From an uncultured archaeon (GTDB lineage Archaea > Aenigmatarchaeota > Aenigmatarchaeia > CG10238-14 > SCSR01): a stretch of 64,000 nt of DNA. Location: positions 101 to 64,100 of the forward strand of contig CAZEGD010000003.1 of the NCBI GenBank assembly GCA_964512235.1, read 5' to 3'. The notes beneath the pieces were generated by a model. The model was given only the letters and a program-made list of their open reading frames with translations, ran no database searches and was not told the origin of the DNA. Every line of letters starts with the position of its first letter. Position 1 is the stretch's first letter. Position numbers and translations under genes: made by a program. This document shows positions 5,596 to 29,165 of this stretch, in pieces.

Positions 5596-6231
5596 TTAGC
5601 CACGTCCCGCAGCACGGAGCATCTTATCTTCTTTGGGCGTCCTAATTAGCCACCACAGACCAAATGCAGTTAATACAATCAAAGCAAGGACAACAATATC
5701 CTGCGCAGAAAGCTCCAAGCTAGGTAAAATATCGGTTGAAATACCACCGACGCTTGGAAATAGTTCAGGGAACATTCCAAAGCCACCACTACTTGCAAAC
5801 AGAGCTACACCCACTAATAAAACTATGATGAGAGCTACCTTGGCAGCTCTTGGAAGTTTCGTGTTTTCATCTATTCCTGAAAATATATCTATTCCAACCA
5901 TCTTTGCTAGGATGTATATTATCATCCCTGCAGCTATTAGTGTAGTTAATATTATTGCTGTCTGACCGAACATCGTTGCAAAGAAGTTCGTTAGAGTAAA
6001 TCCAAGAGGTGTATATGCCATCAAGAACATAGCCGCTGCAAGCGAGAATACCAAGTTAATTGCTCTGGCTAGCCTAGCTTCCTTTAGCGCTGAAGCATTA
6101 AAAGGATCTCCAAATAACTTAAGCTTTGATAGTAACCCATAAAACAATGCAAACAGAATTATGAAAGGTAAATAGAATTCAAAAACACCAAACTCAGTAG
6201 CGAGTCCGACCAAATCTCCAATCGATGCCAT
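5596..6231 (-). CDS. Paralogous polytopic membrane protein, member 1 (subgroup A)
   Basis: N-terminus FGVFEFYLPFIILFALFYGLLSKLKLFGD is shared with members 2 and 3. 5-6 TM segments. Confidence 0.7.
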   Translation of the reverse strand: MASIGDLVGLATEFGVFEFYLPFIILFALFYGLLSKLKLFGDPFNASALKEARLARAINLVFSLAAAMFLMAYTPLGFTLTNFFATMFGQTAIILTTLIAAGMIIYILAKMVGIDIFSGIDENTKLPRAAKVALIIVLLVGVALFASSGGFGMFPELFPSVGGISTDILPSLELSAQDIVVLALIVLTAFGLWWLIRTPKEDKMLRAAGRG

Positions 6232-6303
6232 GTCATTCTCCTTAACTAATTATTCGTGATTTAAGTTTAAAAAGCTTTTTTCTCCCCACTCAACTCTTAA
6301 ATT

Positions 6304-6843
6304 CTATTTAGTCAAAAATACCAGCAATCCCACACTTCCCAGCATCGCTCCGAAAGTGACGGCTACACCTATCCACTCATCGCTACCTCCCCCCAGAGAT
6401 ATACCCTGCGGCAAGAATATGCCTACAATCCCGCTGGTGATGAGCACAACAACACCTATCAGCATGCCAAATATCAGTATTACCGCCCATATCCTTCCAC
6501 CTTTGAATTTATCAGCTAAAGTCTTTGGCAGGTCTGGCGGCATGAACAAGCCGGATACTATCAATCCGAGCATTACGACGAGAGTTGCTATCATACCATG
6601 CGTGAAAAACGTAGCAAGCTGCGTCTCTATATTCACACCCGCTATAATCGGGTATGCCCATACCATGAAAGCCGCTGCAATCGATATGACAGCATTGACT
6701 GTGACATTCCTGTCCGGGTCTCCAAATATCTTGCTCTTCCTGAGCGACCCGTAAAATATTGCAGCAGTGAGGATAAATGGCAGTATGAACTGGAAGAATC
6801 CCAGGTCTCTCATCTTCTGTATTGTCAGTTCCATTGGGTTCAT
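6304..6843 (-). CDS. Paralogous polytopic membrane protein, member 2 (subgroup A)
   Basis: LGFFQFILPFILTAAIFYGSLRKSKIFGD. The TM layout matches member 1. Confidence 0.7.
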   Translation of the reverse strand: MNPMELTIQKMRDLGFFQFILPFILTAAIFYGSLRKSKIFGDPDRNVTVNAVISIAAAFMVWAYPIIAGVNIETQLATFFTHGMIATLVVMLGLIVSGLFMPPDLPKTLADKFKGGRIWAVILIFGMLIGVVVLITSGIVGIFLPQGISLGGGSDEWIGVAVTFGAMLGSVGLLVFLTK

Positions 6844-6847
6844 TTAA

Positions 6848-7390
6848 TCACTCAGACTTCAAAGTCGTGGCAGCCGCGATTATCAAGACTACAATAAATA
6901 TTAACATTCCTCCGATAAGAGTGATTATGTCCGGGTTTATCACTGGACTGGTGGGTGCTCCAGACCCGCCAATAGCTCCAAGTATAGTAGGCAGGAAGCC
7001 GCTAATTACAGCCACAGTCAGGGCTATGGCAACCCCGACGTAGAGCATTGTCCTACTATGGGAGAACTTCTCTTTGAGCATACCCGCGAGATCGGGGTAG
7101 AAAAAACCCGATATTAAAAATGCGAAAAATATTACAAATATAAACAACATAAGCTGCATGAACATAGTCGTCATCGAAAACGTCAATGACGTCCCAGTTA
7201 TTATGGGAAAGCTGAATATGAGGAATGCACCGACAAACGCAACCAACCCGTTGATTGCGGATGACTCTCCCAACAGCTTAGTCTTCTTCAACAATGCAAA
7301 AAACAATGGCAATGCCAAAAGGAACAGCAAAAAGTCATAGAATCCAATATTCAGCAATTCATTTATCACTGTCTCGAACGGGCTTGCCAT
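6848..7390 (-). CDS. Paralogous polytopic membrane protein, member 3 (subgroup A)
   Basis: IGFYDFLLFLLALPLFFALLKKTKLLGE. The gene lies 4 nt upstream of member 2. Confidence 0.7.
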   Translation of the reverse strand: MASPFETVINELLNIGFYDFLLFLLALPLFFALLKKTKLLGESSAINGLVAFVGAFLIFSFPIITGTSLTFSMTTMFMQLMLFIFVIFFAFLISGFFYPDLAGMLKEKFSHSRTMLYVGVAIALTVAVISGFLPTILGAIGGSGAPTSPVINPDIITLIGGMLIFIVVLIIAAATTLKSE

Positions 7391-7467
7391 TTATTAAAAC
7401 ACCTAAATTAGATTTCGTTTGCCAGAAATTTAAGTTTAAAGATTGGGCACATAATTTTATGTTTTTT

Positions 7468-7935
7468 CTATTCGCTCTCCACCAGTTCTATTTCTCTTCT
7501 CAATCTCTCTATATTTTTATATAGAGCCCTTTTCTTATTTTTATTACCCTCAGTTCTTAACTTCTCAAATTCTTTATCACGTCTTTCCATGAGTCTTTTA
7601 AGCCTCCTTCCTTTAGAACCAGTCTCGAAGTAGATATCCCTGCCTCTGTTGATTGTCCAGAGTATAACACCACCTACAAATAATAGAAGGAATGCTGCAA
7701 CCGCTGTCATGCTGCCCAGCTGTATCATCCACTGCGAAACCATTGGAAATATGTCCGTGGATGCGAGGAAGAGCACCATGGCAAGCGAAATCACAATGTT
7801 GATTTTCTTGTTTTTGAAAATCCCCATCGCCGTTAAAATGCCCCAAAGCATTACGAAAATTACTACGAAAGGAATGAAGAATGTGTTAATGAGTTCCCAA
7901 GGTGCCAGTTCATATAATAGGTCTAGGATTGCCAT
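7468..7935 (-). CDS. Paralogous membrane protein, member 4 (short, with a charged coiled-coil tail)
   Basis: INTFFIPFVVIFVMLWGILTAMGIFKNKK, then 2-3 TM segments and the K/R/E-rich tail RRLKRLMERRDKEFEKLRTEG... Confidence 0.65.
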   Translation of the reverse strand: MAILDLLYELAPWELINTFFIPFVVIFVMLWGILTAMGIFKNKKINIVISLAMVLFLASTDIFPMVSQWMIQLGSMTAVAAFLLLFVGGVILWTINRGRDIYFETGSKGRRLKRLMERRDKEFEKLRTEGNKNKKRALYKNIERLRREIELVESE

Positions 7936-7988
7936 AAATACCTAATAATACTTTGGATTTGGGATTAAAAATTTGATTAGAAACTGAA

Positions 7989-8708
7989 TTATGGCTCAAA
8001 CCCTGATTTTCTCATATCTCTAGAAAGTTCCCTCTCTTTCTTTGAGAGATTTCCGTATTCCTTAACCAAACTTTCAACTTTAGATGGAACTTTACCACCT
8101 ACTTTCAATTTCGAAGGCCAGTCTTTAGTATCTGAAGTATTTAGCGCATGTTTAACATCATCACCATAGACAACATCATTTACATCTTTTCCAATTTGGT
8201 TAAGTATACTTGTTTTTCTCCTTGAAATGCCAGTTAAGTCACCTCTAATGCTAGAAACTTCTTTTGCCATTCCACCAAAATTGCCATACAACCTGAAGCT
8301 CGTGCCATATACCCATAGTATGACACCGATGATGAACAGTATACCAAATCCTATTAGGCCTATGAAGGCGCCAAACGCATAGAATATGTTCACTATATAA
8401 GTCAGTATGCCAGAAGGCAGAAGCAGGAATGCAAAGCAAAACGCAATCGTACCATGTAATTTGTTACTTCCTCTTCTGAATATTCTCAATTCTTTGAGTA
8501 TGCCGTAAATAACTACAAAGGCTGTAAAGAAAGGAAAGATAACATAATAGAGTACATTTGGTATTCTAAGCCAGTCTTCAGACATGCCCGGAAAAACCCA
8601 AGTTGCAAGTGCCTCTGGATCCCACAGAGACTCTAGGTAATTCTGCGCTAGACCTACCGTAGGTAACGTCAATAAGATTGCAAAAATTACAGCTGCTACT
8701 CGTCTCAT
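7989..8708 (-). CDS. Paralogous membrane protein, member 5 (subgroup B: signal peptide plus cytoplasmic tail)
   Basis: Signal peptide ending TVGLAQ, core YYVIFPFFTAFVVIYGILKELRIFRR, and a charged C-terminal tail. Confidence 0.65.
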   Translation of the reverse strand: MRRVAAVIFAILLTLPTVGLAQNYLESLWDPEALATWVFPGMSEDWLRIPNVLYYVIFPFFTAFVVIYGILKELRIFRRGSNKLHGTIAFCFAFLLLPSGILTYIVNIFYAFGAFIGLIGFGILFIIGVILWVYGTSFRLYGNFGGMAKEVSSIRGDLTGISRRKTSILNQIGKDVNDVVYGDDVKHALNTSDTKDWPSKLKVGGKVPSKVESLVKEYGNLSKKERELSRDMRKSGFEP

Positions 8709-8770
8709 TTAATACGCCTATTAATTATTTAGTTAGAAGGAATTTAAATTTGAATGGTTATGTTGAGGAT

Positions 8771-10003
8771 ATGGGTATTGAAACAAAGAATAAAGAAAAC
8801 ACGAATGAACTATATTATAAAAATCTTCTGAATTTCTATCTAAATGTAAAATCAAGACCAAAAACAGATTGGCGTTTTATTTTTGGGCAACATCCATATC
8901 TTGGCTATTCTTCTGATACCATACCTAAACTTGCTATCTTTGACTTTGACGGTATATTTGAAAAGCAGGATAAAGACGAACTATATAAACTAGTTCTTTC
9001 CAAGATGGTTAAAACTAATAGAAAACTTCAAAATAGAGTAAATGACTTAGTAAAATGGATTAAAATTTTACAGACACCAGAAGGCTATAAACCAGCTAAA
9101 GACAAAATTGTAGAAATATTTAAAAGCTGTAACCTCACTAGGTCAGAATATGATGAATCCAATGATGAAGCTGCAAAAGAATTTATTAAAAACTCTTTAG
9201 TCAACGGCGCAAAAACATGCATAAAAAGACTCAAATATAAAATGGGTTATTTACCTGCTATAATCTCAGCCGGTTTTAGGCCAGCTGAAATAAAGGTTTG
9301 TGAATATTTAGGAATATCAAACACAAATGTAACTGCAACCCAGTTTTTATTCGATGGTGATGAATTCTATGGAATCGATTTCGTATTAGGATCAAGAAGG
9401 ATGGATGCAAAAAGTAACTTATTGAAGAGAAAACTTGGTAGTAGATATGGATGCTACTTCATATTCGACAATGACCCAGTCCTAAACGCATCTATTCTTA
9501 AATCTGGATTAAACCCGTCAGTTATTATCGGAGATTATCCTAGAGAACAATTAATGCAACTTGACTTTGATGTGTTTACGTGCTGCCCAGAAGCTAGAGA
9601 CAATTTGTTAAATATAATACCATCAATGAACAGATTCGAGTATGGATGGACTGTTGCAAATATATTACCTAAGAAGATTATTAACAAATTTTTTAGTCTA
9701 TCAACCAAACAAAGAAAATTATTTAATCAATTAGAGGCTTTAGATGTAGCAAAGAGTGAATTTTCATCTTTGAGAGACAGGCTCGTTTCTTTATCGCTCC
9801 AAATTTTGAATATAAAAGAAAAGTTTCATTTGATTACAGAAGAGTCGGAGATTAGAGACGATTTGTGGAGATTACTAGTAATCAAAAAAGATGCAAAAAA
9901 GAAAATCAATGATATTTTCGAATTCTTTGAAACTAATGTACCAGAGACAGAATCTTTAGAAGAGTTATTGTATGATGTACAAAAAGAGTATAAACACAAT
10001 TAA
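8771..10003 (+). CDS. HAD-superfamily-like protein with C-terminal coiled coil (hypothetical)
   Basis: I trimmed the start to the ATG at 8771 (MGIETKNK) because the track start overlaps the neighbouring gene. LAIFDFDGIF resembles HAD motif I (DxDx), IISAGF resembles motif II, and FIFDNDPV resembles motif IV. The gene is very AT-rich. Confidence 0.5.
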   Translation: MGIETKNKENTNELYYKNLLNFYLNVKSRPKTDWRFIFGQHPYLGYSSDTIPKLAIFDFDGIFEKQDKDELYKLVLSKMVKTNRKLQNRVNDLVKWIKILQTPEGYKPAKDKIVEIFKSCNLTRSEYDESNDEAAKEFIKNSLVNGAKTCIKRLKYKMGYLPAIISAGFRPAEIKVCEYLGISNTNVTATQFLFDGDEFYGIDFVLGSRRMDAKSNLLKRKLGSRYGCYFIFDNDPVLNASILKSGLNPSVIIGDYPREQLMQLDFDVFTCCPEARDNLLNIIPSMNRFEYGWTVANILPKKIINKFFSLSTKQRKLFNQLEALDVAKSEFSSLRDRLVSLSLQILNIKEKFHLITEESEIRDDLWRLLVIKKDAKKKINDIFEFFETNVPETESLEELLYDVQKEYKHN

Positions 10004-10006
10004 ATC

Positions 10007-10813
10007 TTAAGCAATTCCCCTATTCTCTCTTTGTCTTTTAATAAAAGACTTGAGGTCAAATGAATACTCTCTTATTGTTTTCTCAGTTGCTTCATCTGGC
10101 TGCACTTCACCAGGCATATTTTTCAAGTTATCTTTTATTCTATAAGTTGTATTTAAGAATTCTCTATTTTCTTCAGTCAGATTACCTTCAAAAAGTTCTA
10201 TTTGTAAGACAGTTCCAACACTCTTGGATATAGAATCCATTACATCTCTCATAGTATCAACTTGTCTTTTCAAAAAGCTCTTTGATGTAAGTTCTTTGTG
10301 CAAAGCTTCTAGCTCTTCTAGTTCTTTTACATGTTTTGGTTTAACTTCTGCACTTTTATTTTCAATACTAGCACTAGACAAGGGGTTTGATGCTTCTTCT
10401 ACTTTTTTATTTAATATATCGGCTTCTGTTATTAAAAATTCTTTTTTAATATATGACCTTAATTCTCGAAATTTTCGAGGAATTTTAGTTAAGATATCTA
10501 TACATTCACTGTAAGTTTCATCATCAATTTTATTGCAATGTATTTCGACCCTTCTATATTCTCTTCTTTTTTCAACTCCTGGGATAATTTTTAAATCACT
10601 AAGAATACCTAAAAAGGTATAGTAATTTTTTCTTAATTTTTGGATCCACACATTCTGTATATGGAAAAGGTACGCCACACTATCATAAGGAGGAGCATTC
10701 GAATTTGTCTGCTCCAAATTTTGGAATAATTCATTTTCAAACTCTTGATATCTTTTTAAGGTACCTATTATTTTCGATTTTAATTCTAGATTTGCTATAT
10801 CTGTATCAATCAT
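10007..10813 (-). CDS. Hypothetical coiled-coil protein
   Basis: 268-aa ORF, AT-rich, with heptad-like K/E-rich segments. No recognisable domain. Confidence 0.5.
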   Translation of the reverse strand: MIDTDIANLELKSKIIGTLKRYQEFENELFQNLEQTNSNAPPYDSVAYLFHIQNVWIQKLRKNYYTFLGILSDLKIIPGVEKRREYRRVEIHCNKIDDETYSECIDILTKIPRKFRELRSYIKKEFLITEADILNKKVEEASNPLSSASIENKSAEVKPKHVKELEELEALHKELTSKSFLKRQVDTMRDVMDSISKSVGTVLQIELFEGNLTEENREFLNTTYRIKDNLKNMPGEVQPDEATEKTIREYSFDLKSFIKRQRENRGIA

Positions 10814-10976
10814 CTTAATCTAATTAGGAGATACAAAACTAACCTTTAAATACCTTTAACCTATCTAGAGTAAAAAAAAATTATGAACCCCAACCTATCT
10901 AATAAATGCATGTGTAAGAAGCTTACAACTCAACCAAAATACATTTTTATATACTTTTAAAACGAAATCTAATTTA

Positions 10977-11861
10977 ATGGTTAACATGAACAAAAAAGGG
11001 TTGATTCTATCATTCGTACTTTCTTTCATGCTTTTAACTAATGTAGCTCTTGCTCAGTATGAGTGGTTTAGCGACCTTGGTGAATTATTTGGAGCGGGTG
11101 GTGGTGGAGCGCCACCAGATGCGTTGATAGGTTTTTTAAACTATTTTGGAGTTCCAGAAGACATCCTTGTTGGTTGGGGAGGGATATTTTACTACATAAT
11201 CATACCATTGGCTACGTTTGCGCTAGTTCTGAAAGCCATACTCGTTGAGGAAATAATGGTAAACACGATGAAATTAGAAACATTCAGAGATTGGAGGGGG
11301 TGGCTGTTTATACTTTTAATTCTGGGGTTCTTGCTCCCAACTGGTCTTGTGGGAATGACTGCAATGTGGCTTTATGCCAGTGCTGGTATACTGGTCATAT
11401 ACGGGTTTGGGGCATTGCTGCTCATGGCTGTTATCCAAAAATTAACTTATATGAGAGGGGGGAGGGATTATTATACTTTGGTAATAGGAGTTATAGTTGC
11501 TGCACTTGTAGCAGCATTTATACCTAACGTAGGAATCGTATTGGCCGGATTAGCCATCTTTATGTCAATCGTTGGTTATAGAAGAACTCGTAGAATTGCT
11601 GTAATGGGTCCTTTGGGGGATAAAAAACAGAAAGAATTAGACTACGCTGATAATATCATGGGCAATATAAAGAGGCATTTGAAGGGAAAGAAAGAATTGA
11701 AGACATATCGTAACAAAGAGCCATTTCTTAGGGATGCTCAGAACCTAGCTAGCGATCTTATAAATGAAAGAATTAGCCTCACCAATGCAAGAAAAGAATT
11801 CAAAGCATTAAAGACAAGGATAGACGATGCAGATGCTGCAGCTAAACAGAAAAAACCTTAA
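10977..11861 (+). CDS. Paralogous membrane protein, member 6 (subgroup B)
   Basis: Signal peptide ending NVALAQ, core YYIIIPLATFALVLKAILVEEIMVN, 4 TM segments, and a basic coiled-coil tail. Confidence 0.7.
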   Translation: MVNMNKKGLILSFVLSFMLLTNVALAQYEWFSDLGELFGAGGGGAPPDALIGFLNYFGVPEDILVGWGGIFYYIIIPLATFALVLKAILVEEIMVNTMKLETFRDWRGWLFILLILGFLLPTGLVGMTAMWLYASAGILVIYGFGALLLMAVIQKLTYMRGGRDYYTLVIGVIVAALVAAFIPNVGIVLAGLAIFMSIVGYRRTRRIAVMGPLGDKKQKELDYADNIMGNIKRHLKGKKELKTYRNKEPFLRDAQNLASDLINERISLTNARKEFKALKTRIDDADAAAKQKKP

Positions 11862-11974
11862 TATTTAATTTCCTTAACTTCTTCTTCTCAGATTCTATGT
11901 TAATTCCCTTAGGACTTTTCCTCAATATTTTTTAACGATTTATGTCTTAAATCCAAAATTTAATCTAGGTTGAT

Positions 11975-12826
11975 ATGGACAGGAAAATCTTGATTCTCTC
12001 ATTTATCACTATCTATCTTCTTTTAGTCCCAGTTGTTCTAGCCCAAATTCCAGAATTTGAATTTGGCGTTGGAATCCCTAGTGACTTTGCAAACCTCTTA
12101 GAAAGTTTTGGAATCCCTAGAGGACTCAGCGTCGATTACGGACTCCTTTTAATCTACATCATAGTCCCGATGATAACCTTTATTATAGTTTTGAAAGCCA
12201 TACTCGTCGACCAGATAATGGTGAACTTATCTCCGAGTTTCAGTGGTGCAATGGGTTGGATATTCTGCATTCTAGTAATCATCTTCCTGCTGCCGACAGG
12301 GCTGATAGGTGCGGTAGCCATGATGCTCTATGCTTTATCAGGCATAGTCGTAATATACGGGTTTGGGTTTTTGATACTGATGGAAACATTTAATTATTTT
12401 ACAAGAGGTAAGCCATGGTGGTGGAAATTTATCATATTCGGCATCATAGGCTTTTTCATAGCAACAGTCTTCCTCCCTGGCATAGGTGTCTTAGTAGGAC
12501 TCATTATCGTGGCATACTCAATCTTTAGGGCTTGGAGGTCAAGGGCAAACATAAAGGCTGCATTGCTGGGACTAAAACCACTCGAGGGAGAGCTAAGAAA
12601 GGGAAAATTTGAAAAAGCTGTGAGAGATATTACTCGTGAGATAGGAAAATTACCATCCAATATGCGAGCAGACGCTGAACTAAAATATATAGAATCTCTC
12701 GAGGATGCAGGCGCAAAATACATATCTAACGCCATTGACGAAAATGCATGGAAAAAACAAATCAATAGTATCAAAGAAAGAATAAAAGCACAGAAAGAAG
12801 CCCATAAAAGAATAGAAAAGAGTTAA
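11975..12826 (+). CDS. Paralogous membrane protein, member 7 (subgroup B)
   Basis: Signal peptide ending PVVLAQ, core IYIIVPMITFIIVLKAILVDQIMVN, colinear with member 6. Confidence 0.7.
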   Translation: MDRKILILSFITIYLLLVPVVLAQIPEFEFGVGIPSDFANLLESFGIPRGLSVDYGLLLIYIIVPMITFIIVLKAILVDQIMVNLSPSFSGAMGWIFCILVIIFLLPTGLIGAVAMMLYALSGIVVIYGFGFLILMETFNYFTRGKPWWWKFIIFGIIGFFIATVFLPGIGVLVGLIIVAYSIFRAWRSRANIKAALLGLKPLEGELRKGKFEKAVRDITREIGKLPSNMRADAELKYIESLEDAGAKYISNAIDENAWKKQINSIKERIKAQKEAHKRIEKS

Positions 12827-12838
12827 TCTTTCAATAGT

Positions 12839-13543
12839 TTATCCTTCCCTTTTCATCCTCTGCACCAGATCGCTCAGCGCGCGCACGCTCTCTATCAGCG
12901 CAGGCAAAGTCTCCTTGAAAGCCTTCTCCAACCCAGACAATCGTATGTGTATGTCCTGCAAGCTCGTCCCCACACCTTCAACTTTCGTTATCACCTGGTT
13001 CTGCTCGCCGCTGCGGCCTTGTATTACCGTATTCAGCTGGTGCTTTATCTCTTCCATTCTCTTCTCAAGTTCTGTATAGCGGATGGCAAACTCATTCATC
13101 TGGTGCTGCACATCAGTCATTCGCTCGTTTATGGCATAATCAACATAGTCCTCAGTAGGATAGCTCTGGTAGTATTCTGATGGCAGGGACGTCTCGGGTA
13201 CTACTGGCTGCGACGGTTTTATCTGCTCCATCGTTGGCAGCATCGATGACTGCTGCGCTGGCGGGAATGATGGCTGCCTTGCATTCTGCTGCATGCCTTC
13301 CGCGGGCGTGAATGACGGCTTTTCAGCAGTATATGTTGTGACAGGCTCTCCCCTTACACCGCCCTTTAGCGTCTGCGTCAACGCCGAGTCTATCTCCTCC
13401 GGTGCAAATCCCTCTCTCCTCAACGCATCTATGACATCCGTTTCAGAGAAGCCTCGCGACATAAGTTGCTGCACTCTGTTAGTCGGTGCATATCCTTTGC
13501 CCTTTATTTTCTCCTCTTTGCCACTAAGAAAAGGTATCTTCAT
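12839..13543 (-). CDS. Coiled-coil protein with an N-terminal UBA-like helical module and a Q/P-rich linker
   Basis: N-terminus GFSETDVIDALRREGFAPEEIDSAL, a low-complexity P/Q/S linker, and a C-terminal heptad-rich region. Confidence 0.6.
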   Translation of the reverse strand: MKIPFLSGKEEKIKGKGYAPTNRVQQLMSRGFSETDVIDALRREGFAPEEIDSALTQTLKGGVRGEPVTTYTAEKPSFTPAEGMQQNARQPSFPPAQQSSMLPTMEQIKPSQPVVPETSLPSEYYQSYPTEDYVDYAINERMTDVQHQMNEFAIRYTELEKRMEEIKHQLNTVIQGRSGEQNQVITKVEGVGTSLQDIHIRLSGLEKAFKETLPALIESVRALSDLVQRMKREG

Positions 13544-13615
13544 TTATTTCGACCTTAATAATTTTTCTCGTTCTATTATAATAAATGTTTGTTAGTAGAA
13601 GAAAATTAAATTTTA

Positions 13616-21075: not shown

Positions 21076-21282
21076 ATGAAAGGTAGTATACCAGTTCCTT
21101 ATTTAATAGCCATAATACTAGCTGTAGTCGTTATAGTTGTGCTTGTCTACATGTATCTTTCTGAAAGCGGATTATTCTCTCAAGTAATTGATGAGAAATA
21201 TTGCCAGGCAAAGTGTATGGAATGCAAAGCGACAGGGGGTTCAATGCCACCTGAGTGCATTGATTATCCTTGTGACCTGTAG
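21076..21282 (+). CDS. Class III signal peptide (pilin-like) mini-protein, 5 Cys
   Basis: MKG|SIPVPYLIAIILAVVVIVVLVYMYL. The mature part is only about 40 aa and contains CQAKCMECK...ECIDYPC. Confidence 0.75.
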   Translation: MKGSIPVPYLIAIILAVVVIVVLVYMYLSESGLFSQVIDEKYCQAKCMECKATGGSMPPECIDYPCDL

Positions 21283-21332: not shown

Positions 21333-21650
21333 ATGAAGGTCAAGCCAGCTACTACGGATTCTAAAGGCGTAGCAGTTCACACAATCGTAATAGTTATGAT
21401 ATTCGGGATTATGATGCTAATCCTTCTACTGGTATTTTCAGAATATCTTGGAATACAGAACTGCGAGGCTGCAAGGATGGCCTGCTCGACTGCTAGGGCG
21501 TCACACTGCTTCAGTTGGTGGAAAAACGACAATAGCTTTAGCTCTGGCGAGCCTGATTGGGAGAACATAAACGACTGCGACGATACCGGATTGGTGAGTT
21601 GTGACAAACCCGACAGGTCAGAATGCTTAGACTTGATATTCAGCGATTAA
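21333..21650 (+). CDS. Class III signal peptide (pilin-like) protein, 6 Cys
   Basis: MKVKPATTDSKG|VAVHTIVIVMIFGIMMLILLLVF. Confidence 0.7.
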   Translation: MKVKPATTDSKGVAVHTIVIVMIFGIMMLILLLVFSEYLGIQNCEAARMACSTARASHCFSWWKNDNSFSSGEPDWENINDCDDTGLVSCDKPDRSECLDLIFSD

Positions 21651-21706: not shown

Positions 21707-22162
21707 ATGAGCCAAAAGGGAGACGCTACCATAAGCGTTCTCGGTACAGCTGTAATTATGGCCATCATGGTCATCTTTGTTGCAAACATCGTCCCAGATT
21801 ATGTAGTGTCTGCATTCGAGTTTATGAGCTCATCCTCGGCCGAGGTAGTCTCTAGGAATTTAGCAGGTTTTATAACAATAAGTGCGGCAGCTCCGAATGA
21901 AATCAGCATCGATTACTTTGCATCTAAAAGCAGTGAGTACAATGTGAAGATTGAGAACAGAGTTATAAATCTAGACCTGTTGTCCGCGAGCTTCGGCGCG
22001 AAAGGAGGTTCCATCACAAAAGCGGGTATAGACTCTATCTGCTATTATACGGACACTATCTGCAGATTCGACGGGGTAAATCACTTCACCATAAAGAAAT
22101 GGTCGGATGAGGACGGTTACATTTGTAATGTCAACGGTGAGATGAGTCTGAATGAAGATTGA
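21707..22162 (+). CDS. Class III signal peptide (pilin-like) protein
   Basis: MSQKG|DATISVLGTAVIMAIMVIFVANIV. Overlaps the next gene by 11 nt. Confidence 0.7.
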   Translation: MSQKGDATISVLGTAVIMAIMVIFVANIVPDYVVSAFEFMSSSSAEVVSRNLAGFITISAAAPNEISIDYFASKSSEYNVKIENRVINLDLLSASFGAKGGSITKAGIDSICYYTDTICRFDGVNHFTIKKWSDEDGYICNVNGEMSLNED

Positions 22163-22808
22163 CTGCTCTAAAAGAAGTAAAGGAATCGGAGATTTAGTAC
22201 CCTATGCGATTATGGCTTTACTGATTATAGGTGTAGTTGTAATCTTCTACATTCTCATGATGACAAAGTTTTTGGATATTAGAACAATTGTAATGGAAGC
22301 CGGTGTCGAAAGACATACCCTAAATTTGGCCCAAGTATTGCTGAGCTATGACAAGCTCGTGTATGTGGAAGAAGACTATTTCAGCATACATAGAGGTATA
22401 TTTGTCAAAGAAAAGCTCGATGAGCAATTCAAAGACGGTAGCGAACTTACAAATGAACTCGGCTATCCAGATTCTGTAATCCTATTGTATGTAAAAGATT
22501 TCGATGCTAACAAGGAATGGGCTCTAAGATACAAAGGCCCTTTCAACTTGGAAGGTTCTAAAGCAGCAAGTTTCATAGAATGTCTGAACGAGAAGACAGA
22601 ATTCGATGTCATACTTTTGTTTCAAATGATACTCTCACCTATTTCACATGTTGGCCCATGGGACTATTACACCATCGCTGAGTGCACATCATCGTTCGCT
22701 TCAGACTATGGAACCTCTGTTAGGAGGTTCCCAGTCGCAATCAAAGATGGAAATGAAATACACGCTGGTATATTGGTAGTTACAATTGACGAATGGACTT
22801 TGATCTAA
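22152..22808 (+). CDS. Class III signal peptide (pilin-like) protein
   Basis: MKIDCSKRSKG|IGDLVPYAIMALLIIGVVVIFYILMM. Overlaps the next gene by 16 nt. Confidence 0.7.
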   Translation: MKIDCSKRSKGIGDLVPYAIMALLIIGVVVIFYILMMTKFLDIRTIVMEAGVERHTLNLAQVLLSYDKLVYVEEDYFSIHRGIFVKEKLDEQFKDGSELTNELGYPDSVILLYVKDFDANKEWALRYKGPFNLEGSKAASFIECLNEKTEFDVILLFQMILSPISHVGPWDYYTIAECTSSFASDYGTSVRRFPVAIKDGNEIHAGILVVTIDEWTLI

Positions 22809-23293
22809 TGAAATACAATAATTTGAAAATTAAAGGGAGAAAGGGAATTGCACCCATTATCATAATCCCAATACTTTTAGCACTGATTACATTCTCAGCA
22901 GTAATCATTGCAGTAATGCCAATCATATTCCTCAAAGTCAACCTAGTCCAGATGATTACATTTGAATATAACTACAACAACGCGCAGCTGGCTCTGAATA
23001 CATTGCTCTCTCTAACGAAGACAGACACGACAGACGGTCAGGTAAAGCCTGTCTATAAAATTATCTCAGAGTATGTGTCATTGCCGCAAAAGCCAAATAT
23101 ACTTTTTCTGAGGGTCGAGCTTAACAGGATGGTAAATAATGGAATATTCAAGTGCTACAAGCTCACATCCCAGACAGCTGGCGAGCTGGCAAGGGGAAGT
23201 TGCGATCCCACTAGTGATGGTGAATATTACAAAGCAGTTTCACCTGTTTTAACACCTACATTCGTAGATAGACTGGAGTTGATGGTGGATTGA
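22793..23293 (+). CDS. Class III signal peptide (pilin-like) protein
   Basis: ...LKIKGRKG|IAPIIIIPILLALITFSAVIIAVMPIIF. Its stop overlaps the TTG start of the giant gene (ATTGA). Confidence 0.7.
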   Translation: MDFDLMKYNNLKIKGRKGIAPIIIIPILLALITFSAVIIAVMPIIFLKVNLVQMITFEYNYNNAQLALNTLLSLTKTDTTDGQVKPVYKIISEYVSLPQKPNILFLRVELNRMVNNGIFKCYKLTSQTAGELARGSCDPTSDGEYYKAVSPVLTPTFVDRLELMVD

Positions 23294-26200
23294 GAGCTAG
23301 AGCAAAGAAAAGAAGCAAAGGCCTAATAGTGGCGGCCATACTCGTCATAGCAGCTATTGCTATCGCTGGTGCAGGCATTTACTACTCCAATTTCATCTAT
23401 AGAGTCCAGACTACAGTGGAGATAGTGAAAGAGGCCACAATTGTAGAAGCGATAAACTATGTAGAGATGCTGAAGATAGGGCTACGTAACGCTGTAGGAT
23501 ATTCTGTCTATAGGGCATCGGATGACGTTTTGACTCTGGGCGGAATCTGCGAGCACAGCCTGCAATCCTCAGAGTCGGGATATTGCACAGAAGATTGCAA
23601 GATACCGGCAGGCACTCCAACATTCGAGTGTACTCCCTGGTGGAAGGTCCATGATAAAATATACGCCCCCACGAAAGGGGAATTCATGGAATATATGACT
23701 AACAGAACGCTCCAGAACTTTGAAGGATATGCGAATATGCTCGAAGTCCAAGACCTTGAGGTACCGAACTACTGTCCCCCTCTGGGAAGAGACTGTAGCG
23801 GGTGCTTGACAGATTCAGAATGTCCAGAAGGCTGCAACGGCTTAAGAGAGACTGGCGGAGTTGCCACCATAGAATCAACAAAAAGTTTAGACCCCGAAAT
23901 AAAAACAAAGATGGAGAGCAAGAATGACTATTTGAAGAATGAAAAAATAGAATACGAACGCGACTTCTTCACAGTAGCTGACAATTCATCTTTCACGGAC
24001 ACCGTCAAAGCCACTACTTTTTCACTGTTTGACTTTGCAAGAGACAAATTTATAGAGAATGACTATATCTCCCAAGTATTTGATCAGGGAGACGAGCCCA
24101 TGCCGAACACATGGTGTGCCATGACAGCAGATAACTACTGTGATGTAACCTCGGATTGTCGTCAGGACACAAACAACTGTTGGAATGGTGACTGTTGCTG
24201 TAAAGGCATCTATTACGGCAACGTATGTTTAGATGAATTGCCAAACTGTGAAGCAGGACTGGATCAATACTGTAAAAGAGACTATACAGGCACGACTTGC
24301 ATGGAAGCAGACTCTAATTGCGACAATACAATATCAGCGAAGGAATATTACAACTATACTGTGAAAGGACAGTTGTCGATAGACGAAGATGAGACTGATG
24401 CATATGGAAATAAATTCAGGGTAAAAACGGCTCTTGATGGATGCATAGAAGTTGGCACTGAATCTACACAGACATACAGTGAAATCGTGGAAGTGAATTG
24501 GTATGACTACGATCCTGTCGCAGACCAAGCAGACTGTGACGTGATTACAGCAGAAGGGTGTGGATGCGGAGAATACTGCACTGCATCTGATCCGGAATGC
24601 GGGGATTGTATAGGGATAACTCCTGGCATCTTCGATGGACCGTGTCCATGGGAGACGCTGAGCTGTCCAGATGAATGTTGTGGTCTGGAATGGGAATGTA
24701 TAGAATGGGAAGAACCAGGTCCGTGTGAAGAGCCTGAAGAAACAGATATTGCCGTAGAAGCTAACTTTCAATATCTCGTGCTTGCAGAAAGCCCTGTCTG
24801 TACAGATTCAGATGGCGGTGCCAATAACCTAGTCTATGGTTGCTGTGAATATGGTACAGACACTTATTGTGACTATTGTGATGGTACCAATGTTGTCGAA
24901 TACTATTGTTCACCTGTGATTAACCCAACACATTGCGGCTCTATAACTCACGGCTGTGTAGGGTGGTATGGTGCTGGTGCTACCTGCTCAGGTGGGAAAT
25001 GTATAGAACCTACGACCACAACCACAACTACACTTCCCCCTGTCTGTACAGATTCAGATGATTGTCCAGCCATAGATACAGATGGAGGCTATAACCTATA
25101 TGAGAAAGGTACTTGTTCATGGAGAATTTGTGATAGTGATCATAACTGTAAAGTTACTTACACTCAAACAGATTCTTGTATCAGTAGCACTAAAGTTTAT
25201 GAAATGCGTCCAGGCTCTCCAGTTAACTATTGCGATGGAGAAACAGAAAATTGCCCTTCTGGTACCATATGTTCAGATGGCGCTTGTGTTGAAACAACTA
25301 CAACAACCACCACGACTACCACAACACTTCCAGCGACATGTATAAATCATAATGAATGCTCTCAAGCGTGTACAGATCTATGTCCTTATATGGTATACGG
25401 TTGCTGCTACGGCTGTATGCTAGGTCAATGTATAGGTGGTACATGCCAGTGCATAGAGAAACCCACATATTGCTCAGGCAGTCCTATTTCTCAAGTCGGC
25501 AGTCAATGTATAGTTGGTCCAGTTTGCTCTGATATAGGATTAGGCACACCTTCTGTCAGTCCCTCAACCCCAACAGCTGGCAGCACATTCCAAATATCAT
25601 GCCCTGTCACTCAGGTAGGAGCAGACTGTATAGCAGCATATGCCAATGATATGAGCTCTAGGTGTAATTACACTCATTGGTCAGGCAATAACGCTGTTTT
25701 TAACTGTCCAGGTCTAGCAGCAGGTACTTATACTGCAAGGTGTACTTCCCAGACAGAAACCCCCAGCAATTGTTGTTATGATACAACAACAACATCTTAT
25801 GCTACAATAACACCTACACACGACATAGTAGTCGGTGTCACACAGGGCTCTGGAGCGGTAAATGTCGCTATAAATGGTATCCCAGTCCAGACTGTCACTG
25901 AAGCATCAACAGCCACAATCACGTTCGAGCACGGAGATAGTGCATCATTTGAAGCAATCCCATCATCAGGTTATACGCTAGAGAGCTATTGCGGCTGGGT
26001 CACTGATGGTGAGGTTGTATGTTGCACACCAGATGAGTGCCCTTCACCACTCATAAGACCAATTTGGGAAAGTGGTGGACTATATGTTAACTTTGTTGCA
26101 AGTGTAACATGTACTAAACATGAAATTAGGTTGGAATGTAGGGATTCTATCTGCGGCTTCCCAGGCTGTTGTAAAAAAGCCGCTTATATGAAAGATGTCA

Positions 26201-26709
26201 AGTGCGAATATGACTATGTGGGTACTGCTAATTTGAGCGTAGAAGTGTCGGATATGGCACACAAGTACCCGATAGGCACCGAAACAAAGAACCTGAAACT
26301 GCCTTTCTACATAGCTTCTGGCAATACATTAGAAGAAGATTTGCTATGCGGTGCTTCTACGACGGACGACGATCCGAATACGGAAGAAGTTGAATTCCCA
26401 CAATGGCAAGACTGCAAAGAACCCTATAAACATGAAATAACGGTTAGTGTTTCTAGCGGATTTGGAACAGTTGACATCTATAGAAATGACGAATTCATCG
26501 GAAAAGCCACCGAAGTAATATCGTTTATAGTCCAATTCAGCTCCGAAGACATTGCAAAATTTGTAGCGACTCCCTCAACAGGGTATAGTTTTGAGAGCTG
26601 GTGCGGAGATGATGATTGCTGTTCGCCACCGGACCCAGAATGCGGCCCTACCATTTCAAGGACAATTAATGCAGATGGTAATCTATATGCCAACTTCGAG
26701 TCAGTTTAG
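23290..26709 (+). CDS. Giant (1139 aa) Cys-rich surface protein with a pilin-like class III N-terminus, poly-Thr linkers and two C-terminal B-repeat-like modules (putative pilus-borne adhesin)
   Basis: TTG start; RARAKKRSKG|LIVAAILVIAAIAIAGAGIYY. Thr7 run at 25012-25032 and Thr11 run at 25294-25326. Repeated PVCTDSDGG/PVCTDSDDC Cys modules. Internal duplication between 25819-26103 and 26431-26706. Confidence 0.85.
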   Translation: MRARAKKRSKGLIVAAILVIAAIAIAGAGIYYSNFIYRVQTTVEIVKEATIVEAINYVEMLKIGLRNAVGYSVYRASDDVLTLGGICEHSLQSSESGYCTEDCKIPAGTPTFECTPWWKVHDKIYAPTKGEFMEYMTNRTLQNFEGYANMLEVQDLEVPNYCPPLGRDCSGCLTDSECPEGCNGLRETGGVATIESTKSLDPEIKTKMESKNDYLKNEKIEYERDFFTVADNSSFTDTVKATTFSLFDFARDKFIENDYISQVFDQGDEPMPNTWCAMTADNYCDVTSDCRQDTNNCWNGDCCCKGIYYGNVCLDELPNCEAGLDQYCKRDYTGTTCMEADSNCDNTISAKEYYNYTVKGQLSIDEDETDAYGNKFRVKTALDGCIEVGTESTQTYSEIVEVNWYDYDPVADQADCDVITAEGCGCGEYCTASDPECGDCIGITPGIFDGPCPWETLSCPDECCGLEWECIEWEEPGPCEEPEETDIAVEANFQYLVLAESPVCTDSDGGANNLVYGCCEYGTDTYCDYCDGTNVVEYYCSPVINPTHCGSITHGCVGWYGAGATCSGGKCIEPTTTTTTTLPPVCTDSDDCPAIDTDGGYNLYEKGTCSWRICDSDHNCKVTYTQTDSCISSTKVYEMRPGSPVNYCDGETENCPSGTICSDGACVETTTTTTTTTTTLPATCINHNECSQACTDLCPYMVYGCCYGCMLGQCIGGTCQCIEKPTYCSGSPISQVGSQCIVGPVCSDIGLGTPSVSPSTPTAGSTFQISCPVTQVGADCIAAYANDMSSRCNYTHWSGNNAVFNCPGLAAGTYTARCTSQTETPSNCCYDTTTTSYATITPTHDIVVGVTQGSGAVNVAINGIPVQTVTEASTATITFEHGDSASFEAIPSSGYTLESYCGWVTDGEVVCCTPDECPSPLIRPIWESGGLYVNFVASVTCTKHEIRLECRDSICGFPGCCKKAAYMKDVKCEYDYVGTANLSVEVSDMAHKYPIGTETKNLKLPFYIASGNTLEEDLLCGASTTDDDPNTEEVEFPQWQDCKEPYKHEITVSVSSGFGTVDIYRNDEFIGKATEVISFIVQFSSEDIAKFVATPSTGYSFESWCGDDDCCSPPDPECGPTISRTINADGNLYANFESV

Positions 26710-28763
26710 GCATACAGCTTTTCTGGTTCTCTACAGCAGCAAGCGGTTTTTGATTCACCATCAACTACGACATTATTGCAGAAATACTCATCTATATTTT
26801 CTGTATCAAAACACTTATCACCACAGGACTCTTCAGATCTGCAATAATAAGGACATCCTGGACAGAATTCCCTATTGATTGGAACGGAATTTCTCCACCC
26901 AAAGAAATTCTTCCCATCTAAATATCTATAAGTTAGATTTCCAACAAAAGAGAATGATTTGTAACTCTGTACATCAACTATAGCACTTTCAGGATCTATT
27001 TCTAGATTGCAAACAAAGCTCCTCGAACCCTCTAAGAACTTCTTTTGTCCACCTTTGTAAAAATCATCTTCTGATATTGTAATCTGATTTCCATCACGTG
27101 TACAATCCCCACTCACACCAGTCAACCACGACGGAAACCCACCTTCAAAGCTTCCTAAGGCTTCTATCGTTATAGCAGCTTTATCATCTATATCTATCGG
27201 TTTGTATTTACCAGTCTCCTTACCATTCACAACTTCAATTGTCATCCTTATTTCATTTCTTCTCATCTCTTCAAGGATATAAGGTGAATCAAAATCGATT
27301 ATCAAGTCAACTGGCCCGTCTGTCGGAATTTCATCGGACAGATGTTTTATAGCCCCCTGTCTAGAAGCGATATACTCATCGTCTTCAGTATTAGCAAGAA
27401 CCAAAGTTCTTGTATGCACGACTGACGAATCGTATCTCAGTTTTATTTCAAACTCCAGTTGTTGTACACCTTGATCCTCACATGGAAATGTGTTGAAATA
27501 GGAAAGCTGCGACACACCATTTATAACTGAATAATCGTTTGGGCAAGGGTCGTATTGCCAGTAGTTTATGCTACACTCTGTACATCCACCTAATGTACTA
27601 CTACTACTGTACCCATCAATTATACACACCTTATACCCACCTGCGAAATAAGATGCAAAAATCTTTAGTTCATCTTCTGGTCCCAACGTACATTCATTTT
27701 CATCATCACATATATCTATAGTCTGAGCCTCGTAAAGGAAGGGGTTTGCATTAGACCTCCTTCCAATAGTTCTATTAACATAGGCCCATACATGGGTTTG
27801 TCTCAATTCTACATTTTCTCTATCGTCTCCATTACCAATCACTATATTGCTAAAGACTAAACCACCACCTTCAGTATCCTCGTCATTCAAGTTTTTGATA
27901 TAGATAGGCAACACGTAGTCCGACTTCACATTATCTGTATAACCATATGGTGTAGGAATTTCGTAAGTTGTTTTTCCTTCTCTGAACCTTTTGTTACCTA
28001 TCTCTATTCCCAGTGTGTCATAAGACTTGTAACCTGCATATGAGATACCATCCTCAACTATTTGAGGGCAGAACATTGGATTGTCAGATCCTATGAGCGA
28101 ACAGAAAAGAGCTTGCGGATTACCCAAACTCGATATAAGCGATGATATATCATACCCAGACACCATTCCCAATGAGAATACTCCCACCGCTACAATTATT
28201 AAAAGCATTATAGGAGTGCCTATTTGCCACTCCCATCTTTTTGTTGAAATGATTAACACAAGACCTATCAGAAGACCTGAAATGATGAGAATCCAATGAC
28301 CTACAGAAAAGAAAAGGAAAGGTGTTAATAAAATGTCTGCAAGGAATGGAAACTGTTTATCTAAGAAACTAAAAATTGGATTGTATAACAAGAACAGTGA
28401 AGCAATTGAAATCCCAGATGAGACTACAAATGTTATACCATTTTTTAATATTTTGCCAATTTTTGTAAGTTGAATTTCAGGTTTCTCTAAATTTTCAATA
28501 TTAGCTCCACAATTTTTACATTTTTTAGATTCTCTTGGATTGCCCGTACCACAATTAGGACAAATCTTTTGAAAAGACCGATCCTTTACTTTACCATAAG
28601 CTTCTTTACCTTTCTCTTTGGCTTTTCCACCCCTTTCCTTGGCCTTCCCCCATTTTTCTTTTAGCCAATCATGTTTACCTTTTTTTTCACGGCCTAACCC
28701 TTGCATCCCAGCGGCTATTTTTTCTTCCTGCTCCTTTGTATATTCTTTTTTCTCTTTAGCCAT
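26706..28763 (-). CDS. Zinc-ribbon / multi-TM / large Cys-containing ectodomain protein (685 aa)
   Basis: K-rich N-terminus (GKAKERGGKAKEKGKEAYGKVKD), CPNCG...CKNCG zinc ribbon, about 4 TM segments, then about 460 aa ending in CPGCPYYCRSEESCGDKC...ACCC. Its stop codon overlaps the stop of 23290..26709. Confidence 0.75.
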   Translation of the reverse strand: MAKEKKEYTKEQEEKIAAGMQGLGREKKGKHDWLKEKWGKAKERGGKAKEKGKEAYGKVKDRSFQKICPNCGTGNPRESKKCKNCGANIENLEKPEIQLTKIGKILKNGITFVVSSGISIASLFLLYNPIFSFLDKQFPFLADILLTPFLFFSVGHWILIISGLLIGLVLIISTKRWEWQIGTPIMLLIIVAVGVFSLGMVSGYDISSLISSLGNPQALFCSLIGSDNPMFCPQIVEDGISYAGYKSYDTLGIEIGNKRFREGKTTYEIPTPYGYTDNVKSDYVLPIYIKNLNDEDTEGGGLVFSNIVIGNGDDRENVELRQTHVWAYVNRTIGRRSNANPFLYEAQTIDICDDENECTLGPEDELKIFASYFAGGYKVCIIDGYSSSSTLGGCTECSINYWQYDPCPNDYSVINGVSQLSYFNTFPCEDQGVQQLEFEIKLRYDSSVVHTRTLVLANTEDDEYIASRQGAIKHLSDEIPTDGPVDLIIDFDSPYILEEMRRNEIRMTIEVVNGKETGKYKPIDIDDKAAITIEALGSFEGGFPSWLTGVSGDCTRDGNQITISEDDFYKGGQKKFLEGSRSFVCNLEIDPESAIVDVQSYKSFSFVGNLTYRYLDGKNFFGWRNSVPINREFCPGCPYYCRSEESCGDKCFDTENIDEYFCNNVVVDGESKTACCCREPEKLYA

Positions 28764-28826
28764 CTCTATCTAGAATTAAATTGTCTTTTGTAAGACTAAA
28801 ATATTCCTCTTTCTAAATTGTTATTA

Positions 28827-29165
28827 ATGGCATGCGACTTGATTGTAAACATCTTTTTATGCGGATGGGTGCACATCTTCCGCGGAATCTTTGGAATCTT
28901 CGTACCCCTAGAAGGAATAGTGCTAACCATTGCCAGCGCTATAATATCCTCAATAATCATTTACATACTTGCCAAAACGCTTGGCAGGATTGGTGGTATG
29001 CTTCTGGCTGGAGTCGGTTTAGTCGGAGCTCTTTTTACAGCTGGTATTTCCCTAACTCTGACTATAATTGGCGTGCTCATAACACTCTTCGAGCGATCGG
29101 TGATGCTGATAGTCATAATCAACATAGGGCTGCATGCGACATGCATGCTGCTAGGCTGCGTTTAA
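28827..29165 (+). CDS. Small hydrophobic membrane protein
   Basis: 3-4 TM segments, G/I/L-rich. Start placed at ATG 28827 (track: TTG 28818). Confidence 0.5.
   Translation: MACDLIVNIFLCGWVHIFRGIFGIFVPLEGIVLTIASAIISSIIIYILAKTLGRIGGMLLAGVGLVGALFTAGISLTLTIIGVLITLFERSVMLIVIINIGLHATCMLLGCV

Follow-up and report, generated by a model that had tools for sequence, protein, structure and literature searches.

The window analysed here, a stretch of 64,000 nucleotides of contig CAZEGD010000003.1 (assembly GCA_964512235.1) from an uncultured archaeon, contains a gene block of about 23 kb (5596–28763) that probably encodes the assembly machinery of a type IV filament. According to the map of open reading frames (ORFs) and Pfam, its left neighbour is the gene of diphthine synthase (dph5, 4789–5535, TP_methylase) and its right neighbour that of Alba (29285–29635, Pfam). 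From left to right, the block comprises five minus-strand genes for small membrane proteins (MPs; 5596–8708), two genes for soluble proteins (8771–10003 and 10007–10813), two plus-strand genes for membrane proteins (10977–12826) and a minus-strand pair encoding coiled-coil proteins (12839–14050). On the plus strand follow an ATPase gene, a gene for 95 residues, the gene of a 650-residue platform protein and ten further genes up to 26709, which meet a convergent gene for a 685-residue protein (26706–28763, minus strand). An initial annotation, made from the letters alone, had proposed a surface-appendage island with a type IV pilus-like core at this place. Every element of that proposal was recovered where it had been located, with some corrections. 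The island had been drawn as far as 29165, but its end is now set at 28763, because the ORF 28818–29165 is not conserved in relatives; in the related locus L083 the Alba gene directly abuts the gene corresponding to the convergent one, with nothing equivalent to this ORF. No RNA elements were detected inside the island with Rfam.

The ATPase (14140–16380, plus strand; 746 residues) belongs to the secretion superfamily. It matches Pfam T2SSE with an E-value of 4e-11 (42.6 bits, cutoff 24.9), and among PDB sequences Archaeoglobus GspE is closest (2oap, 3e-24), followed by CpaF (4.5e-19) and FlaI (4.5e-15). The T2SSE and 2oap matches confirm the ArlI/PilB-type ATPase of the initial annotation and, as judged from sequence, provide the hexameric secretion ATPase (GspE/PilB/ArlI/CpaF family) expected of the type IV filament superfamily. 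Walker A (G455–S463), the GEVR motif (535–538) and the His-box residue H563 are invariant among the orthologs. The NCBIfam models for TadA (2.4e-34), FlaI (117 bits, cutoff 550) and BasE (42 bits, cutoff 1000) all match below their cutoffs. No solved structure aligns before about residue 205. The N-terminal stretch of roughly 200 residues is therefore an extra domain, which is lineage-specific and conserved in all orthologs. AlphaFold2 modelled residues 1–190 with block means of the predicted local distance difference test (pLDDT) of 73–94, and the core poorly (pLDDT below 50). At least eight orthologs (P0034, P0069, P0073, P0074, P0082, P0090, P0104 and P0113) are 1239–1267 residues long and carry an intein with a LAGLIDADG homing endonuclease (PF14890, PF14528); the copy in the window has no intein.

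The platform protein (16790–18742, plus strand) is polytopic with eight predicted transmembrane (TM) segments. We assign it to the T2SSF type because its orthologs, which are 28–55% identical to the window copy, match this family (PF00482; 18 of 30, best E-value 7e-8). The platform component of the type IV filament superfamily (T2SSF: PilC/TadC/ArlJ) is thus identified by orthology, and the annotated ArlJ/TadC-type platform is borne out through the orthologs only. A profile of the family reached an E-value of 0.14 against the cytoplasmic domain of GspF (2vmb). Just 3′ of the platform gene, a 45-residue ORF (18768–18905, plus strand) combines a basic N-terminus with one hydrophobic helix and lacks the KG motif; many related loci have tiny ORFs (43–70 residues) resembling it at this place. 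Its product may be a membrane peptide or a pilin of very small size, and it could represent a twelfth pilin-like gene.

Putative filament subunits were identified by a class III-like motif scan, requiring G preceded by K, R or Q within the first 40 residues and then a 17-residue uncharged hydrophobic stretch. Eleven contiguous plus-strand ORFs between 16426 and 26709 were retrieved, and only 3 of 338 ORFs elsewhere in the window, with weaker motifs. This number agrees with the 11–12 same-strand class III genes of the initial annotation if 18768–18905 is admitted as a possible twelfth. With a basic leader, Gly at position −1 and a hydrophobic helix, the encoded proteins have the features of class III signal-peptide substrates and are predicted to be cleaved. 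Their Cys content as a set is 5.65%, compared with 0.92% in the other proteins of the window. The enrichment recurs in 80 related loci, where the strand of the ATPase gene has 2.99 class III-like ORFs per 10 kb downstream of it, compared with 0.14–0.31 per 10 kb elsewhere, a 10- to 20-fold difference.

One of the eleven genes lies between ATPase and platform (16426–16713, 95 residues). Its small, Cys-containing product begins with MIMTGRKG, followed by AIPIPYIIAIIFG, and is related to that of 20738–21061; the gene is annotated on public contigs. Six Cys-rich pilin-like genes (18908–19135, 19200–19865, 19959–20636, 20738–21061, 21076–21282 and 21333–21650, plus strand) follow the platform, with Cys contents of 4.4–7.4% and collinear orthologs in L083. 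The next three (21707–22162, 22152–22808 and 22793–23293, plus strand) form a candidate minor-pilin set, the order of which is repeated in L083, L102, L123, L124 and L129. Overlaps of stop and start codons (22152/22162, 22793/22808 and 23290/23293) couple these three to the last gene of the series (23290–26709, plus strand), which encodes a modular pilin-like protein of 1139 residues, a candidate adhesin. This protein, described initially as a pilin-anchored Cys-rich protein closing the gene series, indeed has a class III-like N-terminus and 90 Cys (7.9%), together with poly-Thr linkers and an InlB B-repeat-like C-terminus (residues 1086–1138 match Pfam Flg_new_2 with an E-value of 8e-7). Its N- and C-terminal parts are kept in L083 and L084.

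A 207-residue protein with five TM segments (49453–50076, minus strand) was considered as an A24-type prepilin peptidase and rejected, since it looks like a degenerate S2P/M50-type protein. It has the S2P/M50-like motif NLLPxxPLNG, but HNLLA replaces HExxH, and it may be an inactive protease homolog. Beside it (49453–50880 region, minus strand) a membrane-anchored protein of 264 residues is encoded, which has the Lon C-terminal proteolytic domain only; its N-terminus (MRRG-FDLS and a hydrophobic stretch) passes the class III motif scan.

Divergently from the ATPase gene, as annotated initially, two coiled-coil proteins are encoded on the minus strand, here called CC234 (12839–13543, 234 residues) and CC144 (13616–14050, 144 residues). 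CC234 begins with a conserved three-helix domain (UBA/RecX-HTH-like), continues with a P/Q-rich linker and ends in a coiled coil; RecX_HTH1 is weakly matched by 13 of 38 orthologs, and weak UBA matches were found as well. CC144 is mostly coiled coil and shares a homologous coiled-coil segment with CC234 (hhalign probability 90.5%, E-value 1.3e-6). Cross-matches between the two hidden Markov models (HMMs) have E-values of 3e-4 and 8e-5. Against PDB sequences the coiled-coil profile matches sigma-1 (6GAO, 1.6e-5), but also spike HR1, GCN4 fusions and chemoreceptors, i.e. generic coiled coils. Neither a signal peptide nor a TM segment was predicted in either protein. Judged by these features, CC234 and CC144 are probably cytoplasmic partners of the ATPase and not surface attachment proteins. 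Far from any ATPase gene, a 160-residue coiled-coil protein (55111–55593, minus strand) weakly matches the CC144 HMM (E-value 0.001), and its N-terminus (MALFGLKKKKG) resembles the CC234 family. It might be the third protein of this coiled-coil family.

The left part of the island is occupied by the MPs. Membership was assessed with a family HMM built from external homologs only, without window sequences, and TM segments were counted by hydropathy. Five minus-strand genes belong firmly to the family: 5596–6231 (core type, 211 residues, five TM; E-value 1e-53), 6304–6843 (the best conserved paralog, 179 residues, five TM; 4e-54), 6848–7390 (core type, 180 residues, five TM; 2e-37), and the divergent 7468–7935 (155 residues, three TM and, at the C-terminus, a charged helical tail with a predicted cytoplasmic location; 1e-6) and 7989–8708 (239 residues, Sec-type signal peptide, TM core and charged C-terminal tail; 3e-6). 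The two plus-strand genes encode proteins like that of 7989–8708. Pairwise comparison with the latter gave E-values of 0.002 for 10977–11861 (294 residues, signal peptide, TM core, charged tail) and 3e-7 for 11975–12826 (283 residues), and the two are 34–38% identical to each other. The family HMM does not match the former, and hhalign relates the latter to the family with a probability of 2.8%. By sequence they are probably distant MPs. Hence, of the seven paralogous membrane proteins proposed initially five are firm, while two are only weakly related and tied to the others by their similarity to 7989–8708.

Common to the MPs are an N-terminal amphipathic helix, the first TM helix and the motif G-(F/I)-(F/Y)-(D/E/Q)-F-x-L-P-F...F-Y-G-L-L-x-K-S-K-I-F-G. 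The 5596-type and 7468-type MPs have orthologs at equivalent positions in relatives, the 7989-type there adjoins the coiled-coil gene, and orthologs of 6304–6843 are 45–75% identical. An AlphaFold2 model of 6304–6843 shows an all-helical bundle of five TM helices (pLDDT 78). Long charged helical C-terminal tails are found in four of the seven membrane proteins (7468, 7989, 10977 and 11975); from the positive-inside rule and the signal peptides on three of them we infer that these proteins are oriented N-out and C-in, which would place the tails in the cytoplasm. The family is large: a profile search of 1.84 billion representatives returned at least 2,126 clusters at 50% identity with E-values up to 1e-3, and 666 up to 1e-10, the clusters listed being mostly 170–210 residues long. 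Comparison of 146 members with Pfam and NCBIfam yielded only scattered sub-threshold matches, none of them consistent. The most recurrent was DUF2070, an archaeal membrane family, with sub-threshold matches in 16 of 146 MPs (best E-value 2.8e-5); a distant relationship suggested by these matches may be real. Two identities were ruled out. The MPs are not the missing prepilin peptidase, as the ortholog alignment contains no invariant Asp or Glu, and an origin from the platform, by fragmentation or duplication, is contradicted by an hhalign probability of 0.2%.

The initial annotation had made the island depend on conserved linkage of the additional genes in relatives. A genome scan with the ATPase yielded 80 loci, nearly all from metagenome-assembled genomes (MAGs) of Aenigmatarchaeota. 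Among the loci with at least 1.5 kb upstream, CC144 was found upstream of the ATPase gene in 56 of 66 and CC234 in 55 of 66; the platform was present in 51 of the 55 loci that extend far enough downstream. Of the 55 loci reaching at least 3 kb upstream of the ATPase, 41 have MPs there, in one to eight copies per locus, and the MPs are confined to this side: 482 kb of downstream flank contained no match. Conversely, where an MP served as the anchor, all 26 metagenomic loci that extend at least 9 kb towards the ATPase contain it together with the coiled-coil pair. Coiled-coil genes accompany the MPs in 30 of 31 MP-positive loci (Fisher p = 0.006, uncorrected for phylogeny). Within Aenigmatarchaeota the order is rigid, namely dph5, 5596-type, 6304, 6848, 7468, 7989-type, CC234, CC144, ATPase, platform and pilins. 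In more distant lineages, Nanohaloarchaea and Woesearchaeota among them, the MP genes run in the opposite orientation, yet still abut the coiled-coil genes. In the ATPase clade of the window, every locus with enough flank has both coiled-coil and MP genes, and the ATPases without either form a few small subclades, two platform genes being present in some of these. Because MPs and coiled-coil pair keep their place beside the ATPase in relatives, the linkage holds for the membrane paralogs. In L035, L040 and L068 two platform-type genes flank the ATPase and coiled-coil and MP genes are absent; these loci probably represent a second, differently built type of pilus locus in the same phylum. L027 has two platform ORFs in tandem downstream, together with MPs and coiled-coil genes.

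Linkage of the convergent gene is narrower. Its 685-residue product (26706–28763, minus strand) had been described initially as a zinc-ribbon/TM/ectodomain protein, and a zinc ribbon (Pfam Zn_Ribbon_1, 4e-4), three predicted TM segments and a Cys-containing ectodomain were found in it. Four homologs were found in total. On contigs L083 and L084 the gene is likewise convergent with the ortholog of the 1139-residue gene, and in L083 the gene order of the window is kept from the 20738-type pilin to Alba. By these comparisons, the zinc-ribbon gene is an addition specific to one lineage, and its linkage is conserved within a narrow clade only.

Within the MP array, 8771–10003 (plus strand) encodes a HAD-IB-like protein (NCBIfam HAD-SF-IB, 3.6e-6, below the family cutoff) and 10007–10813 (minus strand) a soluble protein of 268 residues with no family match in Pfam or NCBIfam. 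Homologs of the former occur in 1 of 82 genome-scan loci and in two metagenome loci, and of the latter, among the genome-scan loci, in L007 only. The region 8000–12000, which holds both genes and the first 7989-like gene, has a G+C content of 33.7%, compared with about 40–43% in adjacent 2-kb windows. Because of the low G+C content and the recurrence in few relatives, the two genes are probably an insertion into the MP array and not a core part of it.

The relationships of the ATPase indicate that the source organism is an archaeon of the Aenigmatarchaeota (DPANN). Named homologs at 65–72% identity are all from this phylum; orthologs at 50–72% are nearly all from its MAGs, and Nanohaloarchaea and Woesearchaeota follow at about 50%. 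The reduced archaeon suspected initially is supported, as a member of the DPANN, by these orthologs, by genes for AMP (adenosine monophosphate) salvage and by over-long tRNAs.

A corresponding locus type has been described. Hamm et al. 2024 (PMC11291902; Nat Commun 15:6449, Fig. 4) reported two type IV pilus-like loci that are conserved in cluster 2 DPANN, Aenigmarchaeota explicitly included, each encoding CpaF, TadC and coiled-coil proteins resembling sigma-1 (6GAO); several of the products were detected by proteomics in Ca. Nanohaloarchaeum antarcticus, which enters its host or transfers cytoplasmic content into it. The island shares with these loci the CpaF-like ATPase, the TadC-like platform and the one or two coiled-coil proteins found in Aenigmarchaeota, Nanohaloarchaeota and Woesearchaeota. 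The coiled-coil profile of the window matches 6GAO too, and orthologous loci were recovered here from named Nanohaloarchaea and Woesearchaeota MAGs. By gene content and lineage, the island is thus a cluster 2 DPANN locus. In contrast, the tandem MPs, the class III pilin operon with coupled distal genes and the zinc-ribbon protein are unmentioned in that text. The coiled-coil proteins were read there as similar to viral attachment proteins or nucleoporins, whereas those of the window, lacking signal peptide and TM segment, look cytoplasmic. GroEL, GatE and Mpg were seen neither beside the island nor among the ORF N-termini listed for the nanohaloarchaeal loci L052 and L070 (no domain scan). Their absence would fit Locus 2, rather than Locus 1, of Hamm et al.

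Other precedents concern single components. Makarova et al. 2019 described type IV pilus islands of DPANN full of unrecognisable ("dark-matter") pilins, Tad-like clusters in Nanohaloarchaeota and Undinarchaeota have been proposed to serve adhesion and DNA uptake (PMC9563170), and accessory coiled-coil (arCOG07564) and zinc-ribbon membrane proteins (arCOG07264) occur in other archaeal type IV pilus loci (Makarova 2016). The archaeal type IV filament classifications of 2016 and 2026 (Makarova, Koonin & Albers 2016; Sivabalasarma & Albers 2026) cover DPANN only marginally. With the classes distinguished there (Epd/system 1, Aap, Ups, bindosome and clade 4) the island shares the core of ATPase, platform and class III pilins, the fast evolution of the pilins and the Cys-rich components known from some subsystems. 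It differs in having no recognised Aap-, Ups- or Epd-specific accessory, in the N-terminal domain of about 200 residues that its ATPase has of its own, and in the MP array and paired coiled-coil genes, which are not among the accessories described in these surveys. The MP array is mentioned neither in the text of these two classifications nor in that of Hamm et al. 2024. Compared with the bacterial Tad/Flp pilus, the ATPase core aligns with CpaF and the pilins are similarly very short. Unlike that system, however, the window has no TadZ, secretin or TadV homolog, one fused platform gene instead of the TadB/TadC pair, archaeal-type signal peptides, and MPs and coiled-coil proteins as accessories.

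The claim that known pilus and archaellum loci leave the additional gene families unexplained therefore has to be narrowed: ATPase, platform and coiled-coil pair constitute the cluster 2 locus of Hamm et al., and the claim stands for the MP family. The island corresponds to an already described pilus subtype in its core and coiled-coil pair, but not gene for gene. This locus type, islands of dark-matter pilins, and zinc-ribbon and coiled-coil accessories elsewhere were already known. There is nothing categorically new in the window, which is a well-resolved further case of a recently described DPANN locus type.

We consider it likely that the island represents, in Aenigmatarchaeota, an assembly locus for a type IV filament (a Tad/Epd-like pilus) that is conserved among DPANN, and we propose a scaffold and an adhesion role for it. 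In such a machine, a prepilin peptidase encoded elsewhere would trim the pilins, and an ATPase hexamer docked beneath the platform would lift them from the membrane into the filament. The small Cys-rich pilins (about 57–100 residues once processed) could form a disulfide-stabilised shaft, and the products of the coupled genes 21707–23293, together with the 1139-residue modular pilin, a priming or tip complex displaying the adhesin. The coiled-coil pair and the charged cytoplasmic tails of the 7468- and 7989-type MPs may constitute a membrane-anchored scaffold that holds or regulates the ATPase via its DPANN-specific N-terminal domain, a functional analogue of ArlX/ArlCDE or PilMNO, and the MPs with five TM segments would surround the platform in the membrane. 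Crenarchaeal ArlX has a TM helix and a cytoplasmic coiled coil and forms a ring around ArlI/ArlH. The island resembles it by analogy only, in that coiled-coil proteins, membrane-anchored as well as soluble, are encoded next to the ATPase: no sequence relationship was found, none having been tested, and the remaining archaellum gene set is absent from the island. The scaffold role is thus suggested by predicted location, gene linkage and the analogy to ArlX.

The machine most likely serves adhesion, be it to surfaces or to host cells, and host attachment, the same hypothesis as in the literature, is plausible. It is possible, though for now only a tentative proposal, that the MP family and the coiled-coil pair form a DPANN-specific membrane and cytoplasmic subcomplex without counterpart in characterised pili or archaella. 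If so, this subcomplex might be a stator or scaffold coupling the N-terminal domain of the ATPase to the membrane, or part of a host contact or bridge structure.

Several observations weigh against the interpretation as a filament assembly locus with an MP scaffold. No filament has been seen so far in this lineage. The window platform itself matches no Pfam family, lying below detection, and the pilin-like proteins have no match to pilin families of Pfam or NCBIfam and are recognised by their motif only. A prepilin peptidase (A24/FlaK/PibD/EppA) was found neither among the island genes nor among the polytopic proteins tested elsewhere in the window. The initial annotation had likewise recognised no such peptidase in the window, nor any ArlC–H or Aap-, Ups- or Epd-type accessory. 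The gene of the prepilin peptidase is often unlinked to pilus loci. For the MPs, a role is deduced purely from context, because their fold matches nothing: the best Foldseek match in the PDB has an E-value of 4, and a profile search of PDB sequences returned weak matches to TM segments of transporters only. The MPs are not obligatory, as eight loci have coiled-coil genes and no detectable MP, and the linkage counts are not independent events, many loci coming from one phylum.

An alternative to an adhesive pilus is a short pseudopilus for uptake of DNA or nutrients or for protein secretion, similar to Com, type II secretion or bindosome systems and feeding nucleotide salvage. The AMP-salvage genes lie directly beside the island, DNA import via pili has been proposed for DPANN (PMC9563170), the small pilins are many and different with no clear major pilin among them, and zinc-ribbon membrane proteins are encoded at the Sulfolobus bindosome locus (Makarova 2016). 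However, no class III substrate-binding proteins, nuclease or ComEC-like channel were seen in the island with Pfam and NCBIfam, and the 1139-residue Cys-rich protein with its InlB-repeat-like domains looks like an adhesin. A bindosome (Bas) in particular, which combines BasE/BasF with sugar-binding proteins of class III, does not agree with the BasE score far below its cutoff or with the pilin-like genes, in which Pfam found no substrate-binding domains. We therefore keep uptake or secretion as a live alternative to adhesion, although we consider a pseudopilus unlikely.

To about the same degree, we doubt that the MP array has a separate membrane function, e.g. in envelope or lipid handling, and stands beside the pilus genes merely through inherited gene order. 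The clearly unrelated diphthine synthase is also a conserved neighbour, at the far side of the MPs, and this explanation would account for the eight loci in which coiled-coil genes occur without MPs; no ties of sequence or fold between MPs and pilus components were found. On the other hand, the adjacency of the MPs to the coiled-coil genes and the ATPase is kept in Nanohaloarchaea and Woesearchaeota despite inversion of the array, ATPase subclades without coiled-coil genes are also without MPs, and the MP matches are restricted to the upstream side of the ATPase.

It is very improbable that the MPs are polymerising or conduit subunits related to VirB2-type conjugative pilins and that the locus forms a cell-to-cell channel. 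Such a channel would suit the host entry or content transfer of Ca. Nha. antarcticus (Hamm 2024), and the MP genes stand in tandem in several copies, which keep the N-terminal helix and vary in the rest. Of 146 MPs, two match a pilin-like conjugal transfer protein (Mbov_0395, NCBIfam NF045849) of a Mycoplasma integrative and conjugative element (3e-6 and 5e-3), and Pfam T4SS_pilin (PF18895; 0.0018) and PrgI (0.0016) match one each. These matches are rare, below the cutoffs and between hydrophobic sequences, whereas DUF2070 is matched more often; homologs of VirB4, VirD4 and VirB6 were not found in the island, and the MPs have three to five TM segments compared with the two helices of VirB2. 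An archaellum is effectively refuted: the sub-threshold FlaI match of the ATPase and weak FlaC_arch matches of a few coiled-coil orthologs (5 of 38 and 5 of 40) would point to it, but the former is far from its cutoff, the latter sit among dozens of generic coiled-coil matches, and archaellin, ArlH, ArlF/G, ArlC/D/E and ArlX families were not found among the island proteins with Pfam and NCBIfam.

For the filament assembly locus favoured here, the relevance lies in the lifestyle of its carriers. DPANN archaea need physical contact with a host, and the locus is one of few surface-machine clusters kept across several of their phyla; in the one cultivated nanohaloarchaeon examined, this locus type is expressed (Hamm 2024). 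The present analysis contributes a delimited parts list of the Aenigmatarchaeota version, coiled-coil proteins that are probably cytoplasmic partners of the ATPase, and a large unnamed MP family whose linkage to the module is as tight as that of the platform. This family is the main remaining interest of the locus.

Outside the island, the AMP-salvage RuBisCO noted initially is real. A complete and consecutive trio (29696–33286, minus strand) follows right after the island and encodes AMP phosphorylase (29696–31246, Pfam), a form III-type RuBisCO large subunit (31254–32474, Pfam) and ribose-1,5-bisphosphate isomerase of the IF-2B family (32471–33286). Three over-long tRNA matches on the minus strand, at 34933–35050 (118 nt), 48026–48117 (92 nt) and 56087–56173 (87 nt), are consistent with the tRNA introns reported earlier; ARAGORN missed the 118-nt tRNA and left one anticodon without assignment. 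An archaeal signal recognition particle RNA was found at 50938–51212 (minus strand, 127.7 bits). A secreted protein of 766 residues (59301–61601, plus strand) matches the outer domain of an S-layer (surface layer)-like family (PF05124, 1.8e-14) and is likely the S-layer protein of the organism.

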